A stretch of 40,191 nucleotides of DNA from Gemmatimonadota bacterium (GTDB lineage: Bacteria > Gemmatimonadota > Gemmatimonadetes > Gemmatimonadales > GWC2-71-9). Positions 25,135 to 34,586 of this stretch are shown here, in pieces. The notes under the pieces are model-generated. The model was not told where the DNA came from. It worked only from the letters and a program-made list of their open reading frames with translations, and did no database searches. Within the stretch, counting starts at the first letter, position 1, and each line of letters begins with the position of its first letter. Where the stretch lies: the NCBI GenBank assembly GCA_039588295.1, contig JBDHAB010000028.1, positions 1 through 40,191 of the forward strand, read 5' to 3'. The translations under genes were made by a program, and so were the position numbers.

Positions 25135-25506
25135 ATGTCTGGAACCAACGAATCCACGGCGCTCTCGTCGCGAGAAGCGCGTAAGTGGGCGATGATCTGT
25201 CATATCATCGCTCTGGTTGGGTTGCTGGCCAACGGTGTGGGCTACCTCCTGGGCCCATTGATCGTCTGGTTGCTCAAGAAGGAAGATGACCCCTTCATCG
25301 ACGAGCAGGGTAAGGAGGCGGTCAACTTCCAGATTACGATGTTCATCGCACTCTTCGCGGGCGCTCTCCTGCTCGTGATTGGCATTGGGCTCGTCCTGCT
25401 CATCGCGGTTGGGATCTTGATGACGGTGTTCCCGATCATTGCCGCGGTGAAGGCGAACGAGGGAGAACACTACCGGTACCCTCTGTCCTATCGTTTCTTA
25501 AAGTGA
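25135..25506 (+). CDS. DUF4870 (Tic20-like) membrane protein
   Basis: WAMICH, GPLIVWLLKK, QGKEAVNFQIT, KANEGEHYRYP. Confidence 0.9.
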   Translation: MSGTNESTALSSREARKWAMICHIIALVGLLANGVGYLLGPLIVWLLKKEDDPFIDEQGKEAVNFQITMFIALFAGALLLVIGIGLVLLIAVGILMTVFPIIAAVKANEGEHYRYPLSYRFLK

Positions 25507-25524
25507 TCTGGCAAGACACCGGCA

Positions 25525-26196
25525 ATGTTCGAGCGCCAACTCCAGCATTACCTCGGCCTCGCTCTGCTTCTCGTCGGAGTGTGGCGAGCGACCGACGTCT
25601 TCCCCGGTGTGCTCGCCGGCGAGCTCTGGGGCGTCTCGACCGCAACGTGGCTGGCCGTCGCCATCCTGGTTGCCATCGTGCACCAGTTCTACGTCTGGCT
25701 GGTCTGGCGGGCGGAGCTCCACCACGCGGCCATCAGCAGGCGGCTCGGCAGGGAGCGGGGCTTCACGCTCCATAGTGTCTGTTTTGCCATCCTCATCGTC
25801 GCGCGCCTGGTCGTGATCATCATTCTCGCCGTGTCCAATGCCAACACGCTCGGCCTGAGCCCGACCATTGCATACGCGCTGGCGATCGTGCTGTATCTCC
25901 CGGCGCTCTACACGATGATTTCGATCCACAAGTACTTCGGTGTGAAGCGCGCTTTCGGGATCGACCACTTCGATCCCGCCTATCGCGACGTGCCGTTCGT
26001 CAGAGAGGGCATCTTCCGATTCAGCGCTAACGCCATGTACACCTTCGGCATTCTCCTGTTCTGGCTCCCCGGGCTCGTTCTCCTGTCTCAGGCGGCACTG
26101 GTGGCCGCCATCTTCACTCACCTCTACATATGGGTGCACTACGAAACGACGGAGCTGCCGGACATCCGGCGCATCTATGGGCGATCGGCGCAATGA
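25525..26196 (+). CDS. PEMT/PEM2-like phospholipid methyltransferase family membrane protein
   Basis: Multi-TM; RAFGIDHF, FVREGIFRFSANAMY, TELPDIRRIY. Confidence 0.8.
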   Translation: MFERQLQHYLGLALLLVGVWRATDVFPGVLAGELWGVSTATWLAVAILVAIVHQFYVWLVWRAELHHAAISRRLGRERGFTLHSVCFAILIVARLVVIIILAVSNANTLGLSPTIAYALAIVLYLPALYTMISIHKYFGVKRAFGIDHFDPAYRDVPFVREGIFRFSANAMYTFGILLFWLPGLVLLSQAALVAAIFTHLYIWVHYETTELPDIRRIYGRSAQ

Positions 26197-26231
26197 CCAT
26201 CGACGCCGCGCCAGACGGGCACAAACCAACT

Positions 26232-27089
26232 TCATGCCTTGCGAAAATGCACTGGGTCTCGGAGGTTCTGCAATTCCCGGTAGTAATACAGGGCGGTGGG
26301 GCGTTTTCCCTTGAACCGCAGCTTCTTTAGAAACCGGACTTCCTCCTCGGTGGCATTGCCGCTCAGGGAAGGGTCACGAAGGAATTCTTTGAGCCCCAGC
26401 TCTTCCTCGGACGGCTCGTTGGGTTCGCTTTCCACAAACTCGAGTCTCCTGGCGTACCCGGGGGCCAGTCTCCGGCTCAGCACGATGTCCATCGCAAAAG
26501 TAGTCAGATCGATATGCCAGGATTCGATCAGAGGACCCAGGAACGAAAGACAGTCTTTCGGCGATAAGTTGAAGACGTCCGTATCCAGGAACTCGAGGAT
26601 TATGACGCGGAACTCTTCATAGCTGTGGCCGCTGAGTTTAGCCGCCAGGCGGAGCCAGTTTTCGTTTTCCAATTCTTTTCTAACGAGCTGCTTGACGACG
26701 TCCAAAAGCTTTTGTGTGACGAGCCGTTCGAGTTCGCCGAAGGGCTGCTTCTCAAAGATCGCACGTATCGCCTTTTCTTCCTCGGGTGGGCACTTGTGGA
26801 GGATCAACTCTCGAATCTCTCCGAACAACGGGGTGGGTGGGTCCCTCAGTTTTTTTAGCAACTCCTCCTTGCGCTGGAGGCCGGCGAGCGCTGACAACTG
26901 ATCGCTCGGGAGCTTCAAAAACGCCGCCATTCTCTCATAGATATCGGTGTGGTCGGGCGCCGGGGGCATCTTCTTGCGCGTCAATAGCTGCGAGATATAC
27001 GACTCCGTAACGTTTGCCGCCGCCGCGAGTTCCTTCTGCTGGAGCCCCAGTTCTCCCAGCCGCTGTCGGATCAAGAAACAGACATCCAT
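26232..27089 (-). CDS. XRE-family HTH transcriptional regulator
   Basis: N-terminal LGLQQKELAAAANVTESYISQLL HTH followed by a long uncharacterised C-terminal region. Confidence 0.85.
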   Translation of the reverse strand: MDVCFLIRQRLGELGLQQKELAAAANVTESYISQLLTRKKMPPAPDHTDIYERMAAFLKLPSDQLSALAGLQRKEELLKKLRDPPTPLFGEIRELILHKCPPEEEKAIRAIFEKQPFGELERLVTQKLLDVVKQLVRKELENENWLRLAAKLSGHSYEEFRVIILEFLDTDVFNLSPKDCLSFLGPLIESWHIDLTTFAMDIVLSRRLAPGYARRLEFVESEPNEPSEEELGLKEFLRDPSLSGNATEEEVRFLKKLRFKGKRPTALYYYRELQNLRDPVHFRKA

Positions 27090-30293: not shown

Positions 30294-30467
30294 GGAGCTC
30301 CCAATCCTGCCGCCGTCGTCTCGGCGAGACGCCTCAGCATCTCCGTTCGCAGTCACCTCAACGTGCCCAACTCCTCCAACAAATGGGGTTGTCTAGTTAC
30401 GCTGCAAGGGTCGGGTGGGGAATTGCAGAATAGGTAGCTGTCACAGCCTCGAATCGGGGAGGATGAG

Positions 30468-32603
30468 ATGGCGGTCTCACGCGCACAGCTCAGCGCCGCG
30501 TCCGCGGGTCCCGCGCTCGCTGACAACCGGCCTCCGAGTTTCCTTTCCGTCGGTGATTCTTTGATGTGGGGACAGGGGCTTCACCCCGTCCACCGCTTCC
30601 GCGAGCTAGTACGTTCGCGCGTCGCGCGCGAGCATGGCGTCGTTGCCGAACTCGCGATGGCACGCTCCGGCGCCGTAATGGAGCCGCAAGGATCAGACGG
30701 CGGACTTCACGACGGCTTGCTCGATCCCGGAACAAATCTGTCGCCGTGGTATTCGCCGGAAGACTTCGCCCGCGAAATGCCCAGCAGCGCGATGTCGATT
30801 CAGCAGCAGCTCGAAACCGCGCGGGACCTTATCGATCAACACTGGGGAAAAGGCGCGCCGCACGACGTGCGCTGGATCTTGTTGGATGGTGGCATCAACG
30901 ATATAGGGATCTTCAACATTCTGACGCCGTTCCGCGCCGAGCTCGACGGCTATGCGCTGCGGTGTTGGCCGACCTGGCTGCTGGATCAAGCCGTGAGCAT
31001 CGAGGAACTGATGTTCGATACGCTCGATATCGCGCTGCGCAACTTCCCAGCAGCGGCGGTCGTAGTCAACGGCTACTTTCCCGTGTTCTCGCTCTACTCG
31101 GTGGCGTCGATCACCAAGCTGCAGAGTGTCGGCTTTCTACACGGAATTTCGAACCTCGTACTGACGTCGCCCTTTGGCCTCGATGCCCTGGCCAACGCTT
31201 CGACCGCTTGGCAGGCCGCCAGCACCCATCACCTGCGGCGCGCGATCCGCCGCGTGCTGCGAGTCCCCGAACACACCGCGCGCACCGTGCTGTTTGCGCG
31301 ATCGAACATCGAGGGGCCGCACAGTCTCTTTGGACCGAGCGCCTGGCTTTGGGGCTACGATGCCATCCCCGATGGCGTGCCCGAAAACGTCAGCCAGTGG
31401 GCCCAGTGGCTTGGCGGCGCCACACCGGAAGATGAGGTGATCCCGGAGCGCATCAGTCAGTGCAACGCAAACCAGACCAATTTTGGCGGGGCGATCACCT
31501 GTCGACTCGCTTCCATCGGCCATCCCAACATCCCCGGTGCCATCGATTACGCAGAGGCGATCATCGACGTGATGGAACGGGCGGGTGTGCTGCAGCCGGA
31601 CGATTCCCCCTGCTTGGTCGCGGCTCGCCGGCGCTTGGCAGCGTGCCGGCGTGCAATGGACGAGGGCAACTACCGGTGCTTTCGTCTCGATGCTCGTGCC
31701 TGCACGGCGTGTTCCCGGACGACGAATGCCATTGCGGGCGCAGCGGAGGGCCTGATCAAGGATGGCGCCAGTCGATTCGGCGAGGCCGGAAAGAACTTCG
31801 AGGACGCAGCCGCGTGCTTCGAGGACACAGGGAGCGAGATGGGGCAAGCGGCCGCGCGACAATTCACTGCTGCCTCTGGCAACTTCGCGGAGGCTGGGGG
31901 ACACTTCTCGAACATGGCAGATTGCTGGGACGACACCCAGGACACGTTCCAGGAGTGCGACGACGAGAAGGCGTCAAAAATTGCCGAATGCAATCGCGCA
32001 CATGAAAACCGCGTCAACACCACCTGCAACATACAGTGCAACAGCTTCACCAACTGCAATCGCTTCGGTCGATTCGATCCCCGCCGCTACGCCTGTCGCG
32101 CCGCTCGGGCCGTCTGCGTTGCGGCGGCGGCAACCGCACGCGGCGTTTGCAGAGCTGGCTCGGTGGCCATGCGCGAAGCCTGCAAGGTCGCCGCCGAAGC
32201 CGCGGCCGTCGTGTGCAAAGGCGCCGAGGTCGTGGAGAACACCGGATGCACGCTGAGCGAAGGTGGAAAGGGTATCTGGGAGGGCGTCAAGGGTGTCGGT
32301 CGCATGTTCGCAGGCGTTGGCGCCGCGATCGGCACCTTCGGCGGCAACCTCGGGTGCGCGTTCGGCAATGCCGCCAAGGGCGCCGGCAATGCGATCCTCG
32401 GCGCCGGTGAGGTGCTCCTGGGCGGCGCGGTCGGACTGGGGGCCCTTGGCTTCTATCTCGGCTGCAGCGGTACGCGCTGGGTATTGACCCGCTCCTGCCG
32501 AATCACACACTGGGCCGTCGGCGCCGGCTGCCGCCTGGGCAACGCCGTGCTGAGCACTCCCTGCGCAATCCGAAACGCCCTCACCCGACCCGGAACGCCG
32601 TAA
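30468..32603 (+). CDS. SGNH/GDSL hydrolase fused to a cysteine-ladder helical C-terminal region
   Basis: VGDSLMWGQG (block I), ARSGA (II), DGGIND (III), GHPN (V); 23 Cys in residues 382-699; GGGAGG RBS. Confidence 0.8.
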   Translation: MAVSRAQLSAASAGPALADNRPPSFLSVGDSLMWGQGLHPVHRFRELVRSRVAREHGVVAELAMARSGAVMEPQGSDGGLHDGLLDPGTNLSPWYSPEDFAREMPSSAMSIQQQLETARDLIDQHWGKGAPHDVRWILLDGGINDIGIFNILTPFRAELDGYALRCWPTWLLDQAVSIEELMFDTLDIALRNFPAAAVVVNGYFPVFSLYSVASITKLQSVGFLHGISNLVLTSPFGLDALANASTAWQAASTHHLRRAIRRVLRVPEHTARTVLFARSNIEGPHSLFGPSAWLWGYDAIPDGVPENVSQWAQWLGGATPEDEVIPERISQCNANQTNFGGAITCRLASIGHPNIPGAIDYAEAIIDVMERAGVLQPDDSPCLVAARRRLAACRRAMDEGNYRCFRLDARACTACSRTTNAIAGAAEGLIKDGASRFGEAGKNFEDAAACFEDTGSEMGQAAARQFTAASGNFAEAGGHFSNMADCWDDTQDTFQECDDEKASKIAECNRAHENRVNTTCNIQCNSFTNCNRFGRFDPRRYACRAARAVCVAAAATARGVCRAGSVAMREACKVAAEAAAVVCKGAEVVENTGCTLSEGGKGIWEGVKGVGRMFAGVGAAIGTFGGNLGCAFGNAAKGAGNAILGAGEVLLGGAVGLGALGFYLGCSGTRWVLTRSCRITHWAVGAGCRLGNAVLSTPCAIRNALTRPGTP

Positions 32604-32846: not shown

Positions 32847-32871
32847 TACTAAGATGCGGGAGGATAGCTCA

Positions 32872-33597
32872 ATGAAACCCGATGGCAGGAGTGATCTTAT
32901 GGCGACCCTGCTGCAGGAGCAGGACCATTACCGTGCAGAAGTCCGCATGTTCGACGCACACTTCTTCAGAGTGTTGCTCAGCTATGCCACTGGTCTGATT
33001 GCCGCGTTTGGCTGGCTAGGCGCGCAAGTGCTCGAGCGGAGCGCTCAACTAGTCCAAGAGGCTGCGATGAGAACTCCACCTGTTGTTCTTCCACTCGGCC
33101 AGGCAAGCCAACACGTCTTCAGTGAGCTGTCGGATGGTCCATTCTTCTACCTGTTCAGTGGAGTACCGGCGATCACGGCGCTCATGTTCCTGTTCGTCGC
33201 GAGGGACTGGACAAGCTTGAACGAGAAGTTCAACCTTCTCAAGGGAGTCAGCGACAGGATTGCCGCGATTGTCGCCGGGGAAAGCTGCCCATCCGAGGCA
33301 CTTCTTCGTCTCGACCGGGGTTTCAAGAATAGGGGGCAAGGCTTGCGCAGAGGGGTAGAGAGCACGCTCTTCGTTTTTTGGTTTGCGGCTGCCCTCACAC
33401 TCTCGGTCATCATACTCCTTGATATTCACAAGTTCGCAGACGGTACAGCAAGGGAACTCTGGTTCTGGTTCGCGGGCTGCTTTGGGCTCCTCGTGGGAAT
33501 CGGAAGTCTATTGACGGCTTTGATTGCCTTCCGCAAGCGAGCGTATCAGGAAAAGCCCCGGGGTGCGCATGGTAACCCAGTCGAGGACGCGTCCTGA
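32872..33597 (+). CDS. Hypothetical 4-TM membrane protein
   Basis: GGAGG RBS before ATG 32872; four hydrophobic segments; lower GC than the flanks. Confidence 0.7.
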   Translation: MKPDGRSDLMATLLQEQDHYRAEVRMFDAHFFRVLLSYATGLIAAFGWLGAQVLERSAQLVQEAAMRTPPVVLPLGQASQHVFSELSDGPFFYLFSGVPAITALMFLFVARDWTSLNEKFNLLKGVSDRIAAIVAGESCPSEALLRLDRGFKNRGQGLRRGVESTLFVFWFAAALTLSVIILLDIHKFADGTARELWFWFAGCFGLLVGIGSLLTALIAFRKRAYQEKPRGAHGNPVEDAS

Positions 33598-33677
33598 CGC
33601 TAGGTTTCGAGAGCGTGTAGAATCAGTTAGGCAAGAGACCACCGCCCCGGGGCGAGCCTTGAGAGGAGAGAGTAAGC

Positions 33678-34586
33678 ATGAGGTTCATCAAACCCGCAGA
33701 GATTGCGTCAAGAATAATGTCCTTGATGGATGAAGCCGAGAATACGTTGATCATCATATCTCCGTATAACAAGATTGCGAAGTGGGAGAAAATGAGGCGC
33801 CTACTGATGGCGGTCAGCAAAAGAATCGACGTTGAGTACTACATACGCGCCAGGGTGCCTGGTAATCGGAAAGAAATCACTTCTATGGGCATCAATCCTG
33901 TTGAAATCGATAATCTCCATGCGAAGGTGTATATGAATGAGAGGTCAGCGATAGTCACGTCTATGAACCTCAATGAGTCGTCTGATATTCAATCGCTAGA
34001 CATTGGTTTCGAAACAGAGAACTCTGACGAGTTCGAACACGTAAAGTCCTTCTATCGTACCCACATTAGGCCCCGGCGCGGCGCGATTCTTGTCGAAGGT
34101 GCCTTTCGTGCGGGCGCAGTTGCTGACCAATCGGATTGTGTGAGTGCTCTGCAGGAATGTCTACACCGCGGCATGAAGAGCCGCGCGTTTGAGAGAAGCG
34201 GTGACGTCCTTGTTTTGAAAGACGCGTTCCTCAATGGTCTCAGCGTGAGGCTCGAACCGAGGTCTGGGTACTACAGGATTGACTTTCGATTTGAGTTGCC
34301 ACCCGATCGCAAGAGCTATCTCTTTCACGGACTTGAGGGGATGAGAGATCAGCTTGAAACGGAGATTGGCCACAACATCGAATTCGGTCGGCAGATGAAA
34401 CGAATCAAGATCGACGTTGGAAACAAGGGGAGCACGCGATTCGACTATAAGCATATAGGAGCTTGGGATCGGGGCACACTTCGAGATTGGCTTGGCTCCG
34501 AATACGACCAACTCGTACGGGTGTTCGTTCGATCAATCAACGCAATCGTGCCGAGAATCAAGAAGTTGGAAACTATGGCGAAGTGA
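33678..34586 (+). CDS. Phospholipase D-family (single HKD-like motif, nuclease-type) domain protein
   Basis: IIISPY and LHAKVYMNERSAIVTSMNL in the N-terminal ~130 aa; unknown C-terminal domain; visibly AT-richer. Confidence 0.8.
   Translation: MRFIKPAEIASRIMSLMDEAENTLIIISPYNKIAKWEKMRRLLMAVSKRIDVEYYIRARVPGNRKEITSMGINPVEIDNLHAKVYMNERSAIVTSMNLNESSDIQSLDIGFETENSDEFEHVKSFYRTHIRPRRGAILVEGAFRAGAVADQSDCVSALQECLHRGMKSRAFERSGDVLVLKDAFLNGLSVRLEPRSGYYRIDFRFELPPDRKSYLFHGLEGMRDQLETEIGHNIEFGRQMKRIKIDVGNKGSTRFDYKHIGAWDRGTLRDWLGSEYDQLVRVFVRSINAIVPRIKKLETMAK

Follow-up and report, generated by a model that had tools for sequence, protein, structure and literature searches.

The locus

The window analysed here comprises positions 1–40,191 of contig JBDHAB010000028.1 of a Gemmatimonadota bacterium. 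Our subject is one of its genes, at 30468..32603 on the plus strand, which encodes a 711-residue protein (P0001) that joins an SGNH hydrolase domain to a long tail carrying a ladder of mirror-symmetric cysteines. The gene and its features are:

30456..30463, plus strand: Shine-Dalgarno-like GGGGAGGA, 4 nt 5' of the ATG (direct reading of the sequence)
30468..32603, plus strand: gene for the SGNH hydrolase with cysteine-ladder tail, 711 residues (open reading frame; full-length homologues 36–81% identical)
30468..30533, plus strand: conserved N-terminal extension of about 22 residues, neither a Sec nor a Tat signal (family alignment, leader heuristic)
30534..31592, plus strand: SGNH hydrolase domain, residues 23–375, with Ser31, Gly68, Asn144 and His352 (alignment, structure comparison)
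30963..30965, plus strand: C166, putative partner of C412, which would tie the catalytic domain to the outgoing arm (co-occurrence)
31461..31502, plus strand: C332/C345, putative local disulfide right before the catalytic His (co-occurrence)
31608..32018, plus strand: outgoing polar amphipathic arm, helices 381–449 and 457–517, two related 36-residue units (AlphaFold DSSP, internal duplication)
31815..31835, plus strand: predicted hinge 450–456, mirror of 622–627 (helix break in both models)
31923..32249, plus strand: mobile core module, about residues 486–594 (profile matches on PF04185, PF00232, galactose-oxidase-like, metzincin and unknown proteins)
32019..32078, plus strand: non-helical tip with C520, C524, C530 and an aromatic/Arg turn, a repeatable unit of 11 residues out and 18 back (models, repeats)
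32079..32585, plus strand: returning Gly/Ala-rich, basic, hydrophobic arm, helices 538–621 and 628–706 (composition, model)
32331..32348, plus strand: predicted hinge 622–627 (helix break in both models)

The start at 30468 is backed by the Shine-Dalgarno-like element, so that no signal peptide lies upstream.

A mirror-symmetric cysteine ladder

The first-pass annotation of this DNA had described the stretch 31611–32564, which runs from the codon of C382 to that of C699, as one arm-to-arm ladder of cysteines on an SGNH hydrolase. All 23 cysteine positions that it listed for the tail are exact, and on recounting ten pairs do sum to 1080 (five) or 1081 (five). The arms also differ in composition as claimed: the outgoing arm is polar with 22 Asp/Glu in 149 residues, and the returning arm is hydrophobic with 21% Gly, 19% Ala, 11% Val and 7 Asp/Glu in 150 residues. 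Across an alignment of the query and 34 full-length homologues (the truncated or hairpin-less P0002, P0011, P0016, P0039 and P0040 were left out), the best 19-residue hydropathy of the returning arm is 1.66–2.79 and its net charge +5 to +21 in 35/35 sequences. Within each arm, the 36-residue units are related to each other, with 11/30 identities in the outgoing and 11/37 in the returning arm.

A chance origin of the mirror was ruled out by two null models (2000 trials each, sum tolerance of 1) and by conservation across the 35 sequences: random cysteine positions never gave more than seven mirror pairs, and shuffling of the real gaps reached ten in 2/2000 trials. Likewise, a DNA palindrome or assembly artefact was dismissed by comparing the DNA of the two arms (30% identity when one arm is reverse-complemented, 27% when it is reversed) and by the presence of homologues in other assemblies. 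Since this identity is low and non-cysteine residues agree at just 10/139 mirrored positions, the mirror exists at the level of the protein only.

Mirror cysteines are lost together

Among the homologues, cysteines facing each other across the mirror disappear jointly. C404/C677 are both lost in 7/35 sequences and both kept in 28/35, C415/C666 are both lost in one (P0006), and C450/C630 are both lost in ten; nine of these ten also lack one 36-residue unit in each arm, and the tenth (P0032) has 63 and 61 residues where others have 71 and 72. In a quick tree built from 38 rows of the catalytic domain, the 404/677 loss falls into two separate clades, each with a value of 100 in the Shimodaira–Hasegawa-like approximate likelihood ratio test, and short forms are scattered at several places, some next to long forms. 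Because mirror cysteines are lost together and 36-residue insertions or deletions are matched between the arms, our comparison supports the view that they act as partners in an antiparallel, mostly helical hairpin.

The tip provides a second line of evidence. C524 and C543 are invariant in 35/35 sequences, the turn is of the type aromatic-D-P-R-R-Y, and relatives repeat two-cysteine units that are 11 residues long on the outgoing and 18 on the return side. Counted over 61 proteins (three near-duplicates removed), the unit numbers are equal across the arms in 60, and in 21 of the 22 with multiple units: 39 proteins have 1/1, eight have 2/2, twelve have 3/3 and one (P0057) has 4/4. Equal unit numbers together with the invariant C524 and C543 argue for a nested 520/561, 524/550 and 530/543, and hence for eleven rungs rather than ten. 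Of the first-pass list, 530/550 is probably wrong; C524 and C543 had no partner in it. Very probably, the complete set of nested rungs is 382/699, 393/688, 404/677, 415/666, 450/630, 486/594, 497/583, 508/572, 520/561, 524/550 and 530/543. On the outgoing side, both AlphaFold models show a tip segment without helix, and at the tip eleven extended residues may span eighteen helical ones.

Shape of the tail

The full-length and the tail-only AlphaFold models both place helices at 381–449, 457–517, 538–621 and 628–706. Structural matches of the tail are four-helix bundles, for example single-chain ROP (118 aligned, root-mean-square deviation (rmsd) 2.2), and as these run across both helix breaks, the models suggest a tail that is folded double, giving a rod of about 10–12 nm in place of a straight arm of about 21 nm. 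The straight needle of 23 nm envisaged earlier is not borne out: both models, at low confidence, break the helices at mirror positions and match doubled four-helix bundles. The best VIA Z of the tail (13.8) lies inside the helical-bundle background and gives no proof of a new fold.

Hydrophobic moments were calculated for 24 long-form sequences as angles relative to the line of cysteines. They point to +70 to +120 degrees in most of the outgoing arm and to -104 to -175 degrees in the return arm, with residues 594–666 of the latter about 170 degrees off. An angle of this size suggests that the return-arm stripe wants a partner from outside, which, as far as this geometry can be trusted, appears to be either lipid or another copy of the protein. 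A trimer prediction of residues 381–706 scored 0.00, weighing neither way.

Several observations weigh against the hairpin as drawn here. The homologues are related, so that the counts of paired losses overstate the number of independent events. One sequence is discordant, with C450 kept and C630 gone (P0018), and the tip units of one protein are unequal, with two out and three back (P0065). The covariation analysis that the first-pass annotation had proposed found the cysteine pairs lost together but, outside the cysteines, no peak of charge and volume covariation at the mirror sum (effective depth 26). Finally, the tail-alone model has a predicted local distance difference test (pLDDT) value of 68 and a predicted template modelling score (pTM) of 0.41, with per-residue pLDDT mostly at 50–80.

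The catalytic domain

Ser31 (block I), Gly68 (block II), Asn144 (block III) and His352 (block V) are invariant in 35/35 aligned sequences. Block V lacks the canonical acid of the DxxH motif, with Ser349 standing three residues before the His in 35/35. The Pfam family Lipase_GDSL_2 matches with 19.9 bits (E 0.0012), under its gathering score of 32.9, and a precomputed PF13472 match is present on 5/37 relatives listed. In the full-length AlphaFold model (mean pLDDT 76, pTM 0.67), the closest fold for residues 23–375 is the Streptomyces rimosus lipase SrL (5MAL; VIA Z 19.3, rmsd 3.0, 213 aligned), followed by the Streptomyces scabies esterase 1ESC (Z 19.1), and the best Foldseek match is the Streptomyces albidoflavus phospholipase A1 4HYQ (E 1.2e-3). 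As the VIA list consists mostly of SGNH/GDSL enzymes, a three-layer alpha/beta/alpha fold is supported.

SrL, SaPLA1 and SsEst are reported to have no acidic third catalytic residue and to work with a Ser-His dyad, and SrL carries three disulfides (PMC10779480). P0001 shares with these Streptomyces hydrolases the fold, the S-G-N-H residues and the missing acid three positions before the His, at 12–17% identity. Judged by these features, its catalytic domain is an SGNH hydrolase of the dyad type, and the intact S-G-N-H set on a fold nearest to dyad enzymes predicts that it is very likely an active ester hydrolase. The setting differs: SrL is extracellular and consists of one domain with 234 residues, whereas P0001 has no signal peptide and a cysteine-ladder tail of 330 residues.

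Two further cysteine pairs involve the catalytic domain. C166 and C412 are both present in 9/35 sequences, both absent in 26/35 and never discordant, all in one clade and thus representing one event; C332 and C345 are both lost in 4/35, again in one clade, and both kept in 31/35. The N-terminal extension is kept in P0039 (locus L005, 979–2253), an SGNH relative without the hairpin, which indicates that the extension is not bound to the tail.

A mobile module on unrelated enzymes

Profile searches against 1.84 billion representative sequences gave 17 matches for the tail and 38 for the tip; the weakest of the 17 (P0049) was dropped as a low-complexity repeat. Besides SGNH hydrolases, the module is found at the N-terminus of a phospholipase C-like phosphoesterase (P0048), of a glycoside hydrolase family 1 (GH1) glycosidase (P0058), of eight HExxHxxxxxH metzincins (P0061–68) and of two proteins of about 1,100 residues each whose remainder has no Pfam match (P0057, P0060), as well as inside six galactose-oxidase-like proteins (P0043, P0044, P0046, P0059, P0069, P0070). 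Its position thus varies between N-terminus, C-terminus and middle. By these profile matches, the module is a mobile unit shared by different enzyme families, and the occurrence of the tail tip on several unrelated enzymes points to an undescribed attachment module.

Two weak profile matches, G213 and G796, were rejected as members of the module and turned out to carry a second type of mirror-cysteine hairpin, with 11-residue spacing and a Trp/Val-rich return arm. It is N-terminal on leaderless phospholipase C-like proteins (L166, 1–1854, minus strand, from G213:C3; L170, 394–2355, plus strand, from G796:C4), which are 37% identical to P0048 and have six mirror pairs; compared with G213, G796 has one extra unit in both arms. 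The second type also occurs on the metzincin-like WP_257116139.1 (L167, 1873–2844, plus strand, plasmid NZ_CP089602.1), a protein annotated as hypothetical with a four-pair mirror-cysteine N-terminus and a catalytic part 29% identical to P0063. Both hairpin types therefore share the same N-terminal slot on the phospholipase C-like and metzincin families. The ESM Atlas holds unnamed clusters of 320 residues near P0063. As a separate observation, the very acidic SGNH-hairpin protein P0041 has at its C-terminus an additional hydrophobic helix and, after it, basic residues, possibly a membrane anchor.

Distribution, hosts and gene neighbourhood

Among the named carriers are Marinimicrobium alkaliphilum, Planctomycetota and Xanthomonadales. 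A search of 40 relatives found the gene in none of them. In 300 other genomes of the host's phylum, the module profile had a single weak match; 400 other genomes of the phylum of the planctomycete carrier gave none, and 400 others of the order of the gammaproteobacterial carrier gave two. The module is single-copy in 5/5 hosts, and no conserved neighbours were seen across 16 loci inspected. This solitary, single-copy and patchy occurrence suggests a gene that moves horizontally. Relatives were found neither in viral contigs nor in phages, and the plasmids searched held seven hairpin-less SGNH matches and no others; a plasmid search for the second hairpin type gave none.

With a simple Tat/hydrophobic heuristic, for which start codons were chosen mechanically and some metagenomic proteins may be truncated, a leader was detected in 0/42 SGNH and 0/19 other carriers. 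Hairpin-less SGNH relatives have a leader in 65/142 and none in 77/142. DsbB is present in 3/5 hosts and VKOR in 2/5, both of them in this genome, which is uninformative for a leaderless protein. The type VI secretion system (T6SS) sheath protein VipB occurs in 2/5 host genomes, including this one on another contig, where two VipB-family matches at G000:C19, 23090–25721, mark the T6SS of the host genome. WXG100 (PF06013) was found in 0/5 hosts, whose assemblies may be incomplete, and in 3/14 of the control; the contractile-injection tube family PF06841 was likewise found in 0/5, an uninformative result as its control matched nowhere.

No promoter-like site was found, and two terminator-like sites are no more than expected by chance. 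Downstream of the gene, at 32854–34586 on the plus strand, lie two genes of low GC content (50–57% versus 64% for the genome), one a predicted membrane protein without family match, the other with a weak PLD-like (phospholipase D-like) match (E 0.0099); this pair was possibly acquired recently. A second low-GC stretch (53–57%) comprises an HTH_3 protein (26232–27089, minus strand) and its unmatched neighbour (25498–26235, minus strand). Elsewhere, two planctomycete genomes (L002, L004) have near-identical spurious open reading frames upstream of the gene, in a stretch that we take, from the pattern of these frames, to resemble an rRNA region.

Relation to known systems

The first-pass annotation had not recognised the architecture of the tail, and the database comparison agrees: the tail has no match in Pfam, NCBIfam or, by sequence, the PDB, no usable match in the ESM Atlas, and no Foldseek match in the PDB or BFVD at E<=0.001. 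A description of the module was not found in the literature searched, which left most subscription journals and supplements outside. The parts consulted of a polymorphic-toxin survey, supplements excluded, hold no mention of GDSL, SGNH or galactose oxidase (PMC3482391).

Three known systems invite comparison. The first is the saposin domain, a bundle of helices that is held by disulfides and offers lipid to hydrolases; acid sphingomyelinase and acyloxyacyl hydrolase each contain one (PMC11014568). Saposins are made of four or five helices and mostly have three disulfides (PMC11542183). Like them, the module is a set of amphipathic helices, putatively linked by disulfides and fused to a lipid hydrolase, an analogy of function only, and both sit on SGNH and phosphoesterase-type hydrolases. 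Unlike saposins, the module has eleven rungs with 22 paired cysteines over 318 residues, CX10C spacing and extensible repeats. With no saposin Pfam match at E<=0.01 for P0001 and none at E<=1 for 11 module sequences, the profile searches indicate that it is not a member of the saposin family.

Second, in twin CX9C or CHCH hairpins, nested disulfides staple two antiparallel helices. The module is like those of p8MTCP1 and Pet191 in its nested mirror pairing over a helical hairpin, here read from paired losses and insertions or deletions, and its matches to them are weak and insignificant (1HP8, E 0.28; Pet191_N, E 0.69). Twin CX9C proteins have two disulfides (PMC12114033). In contrast, the module has eleven rungs, a shaft spacing of 11 (CX10C), bacterial carriers and a fused enzyme.

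Third, alpha-helical pore-forming toxins and WXG100/LXG rods are leaderless long helical hairpins with a hydrophobic segment, fused to hydrolases, and the module shares the leaderless helical hairpin, the hydrophobic segment and the enzyme fusion. It differs from WXG100/LXG in having no WxG at the turn and in the absence of the WXG100 family from the five hosts searched. To our knowledge, a disulfide ladder is not a feature of pore-forming toxins or of WXG100/LXG rods. Altogether, helical hairpins with nested disulfides have precedents in principle, and the enzyme adds a member to a known superfamily, whereas an eleven-rung, CX10C, repeat-extensible and mobile hairpin was not found in Pfam, NCBIfam, the PDB, BFVD, the ESM Atlas or the literature covered.

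Possible function of the hairpin

We propose an antiparallel hairpin with eleven nested Cys–Cys rungs, in which the shaft would pair helix with helix and the tip would lay an extended chain along a helix; the hinges would sit where the rungs are far apart. The rungs are likely disulfides that form once the leaderless protein has left the reducing cytoplasm, be it by lysis, in vesicles or by a non-classical route. Once locked, the hairpin might serve as an appendage that docks onto the surface of the substrate, a proposal to which, as to the chain of steps as a whole, we give slightly less than an even chance. The aromatic/Arg tip and the exposed, hydrophobic and basic stripe of the return arm would bind membranes or lipid particles, and the docked tail would keep the lipase or phospholipase at the interface, a part that saposin domains play for the lipid hydrolases of eukaryotes. 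The nearest catalytic folds (lipase, esterase and phospholipase A1) and the phospholipase C-like carrier were counted in favour of docking. Its lipid-specific role has its main weakness in the protease, glycosidase and oxidase carriers, as metzincins, GH1 and galactose-oxidase-like proteins are not obviously lipid enzymes, and the seemingly leaderless carriers leave access to an oxidising compartment unexplained.

Another explanation, which we consider improbable, is a membrane-inserting device that delivers an antagonistic enzyme, with a hairpin that opens at its hinges or oligomerises and inserts the return arm. The transmembrane-like hydropathy of this arm in 35/35 sequences, the solitary and patchy genes and payloads comprising lipase, phospholipase C-like, oxidase and protease domains would fit, and the mirror hinges could permit extension. 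However, the rungs bind the hydrophobic arm to an acidic polar arm along its full length, the models are folded double, and no candidate for a conserved immunity gene stands beside the gene in the 16 loci inspected. Moreover, the match of the tail to the pore-forming toxin AhlB (Z 9.6, rmsd 3.6, 205 aligned) ranks 39th amid generic helical bundles.

No better placed is an export or packaging tag, with the hairpin replacing a signal peptide and being recognised by non-classical secretion or vesicle loading. The lack of leaders among SGNH and other carriers, set against the 65/142 hairpin-less relatives that have one, and the N-terminal slot shared by both hairpin types speak for a tag. On the other hand, the other 77 hairpin-less relatives are leaderless too and the SGNH carriers are closely related, the hosts have no machinery in common (T6SS sheath in 2/5, WXG100 in 0/5), and the module may be N-terminal, C-terminal or internal, depending on the carrier.

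Similarly low is the probability of a self-assembly stalk, in which the return-arm stripes of several copies would come together as a homo-oligomeric core, with the enzyme heads clustered or displayed by it. Here, the stripe points away from the rungs with Gly/Ala on its flanks, and the length is tunable in matched steps; an 11-residue periodicity, as in the shaft, is typical of long straight helical bundles. Yet in both monomer models the doubling of the tail leaves part of the stripe buried, and a single module copy per genome in 5/5 hosts argues against a multi-enzyme scaffold.

Least probable is a cytoplasmic metal-binding or redox switch, in which cysteine pairs bind Cu(I), Zn or Hg or respond to redox and thereby gate the enzyme: a missing signal peptide, the copper storage protein Ccsp among the fold neighbours (Z 12.0), a carrier family related to copper radical oxidases and the C166/C412 link between arm and catalytic domain would agree with it, but the rungs are isolated pairs 11–36 residues apart without conserved His or CxxC partners, the extra paired cysteines of the catalytic domain fit the disulfide habit of the SrL group, and Ccsp, at 7% identity, matches as a generic four-helix bundle.

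Altogether, the mirror-paired antiparallel hairpin on an SGNH hydrolase that had been predicted at this locus is supported by the paired cysteine losses, the paired insertions or deletions and the catalytic fold.

Significance

Two distant parts of a gene that gain and lose repeats in step offer unusually clear proof of topology by natural experiment. The docking proposal raises the question of a bacterial saposin-like lipid-docking domain, and the ladder raises another: by what route bacterial proteins that lack a leader and bear up to eleven disulfides are oxidised and released. Protein design, too, could use a rigid rod that lengthens or shortens in matched steps as a scaffold. Beyond this, one can speculate, at rather low probability, that interchangeable, length-tunable disulfide-ladder hairpins of at least two sequence types represent a general export-and-docking device for leaderless bacterial enzymes. 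Such hairpins would be unlocked in the cytoplasm, lock on release and then attach lipases, phospholipases, glycosidases, oxidases and proteases to target membranes. If true, prokaryotes would have in this device either their counterpart to saposin domains or a new module for toxin delivery.

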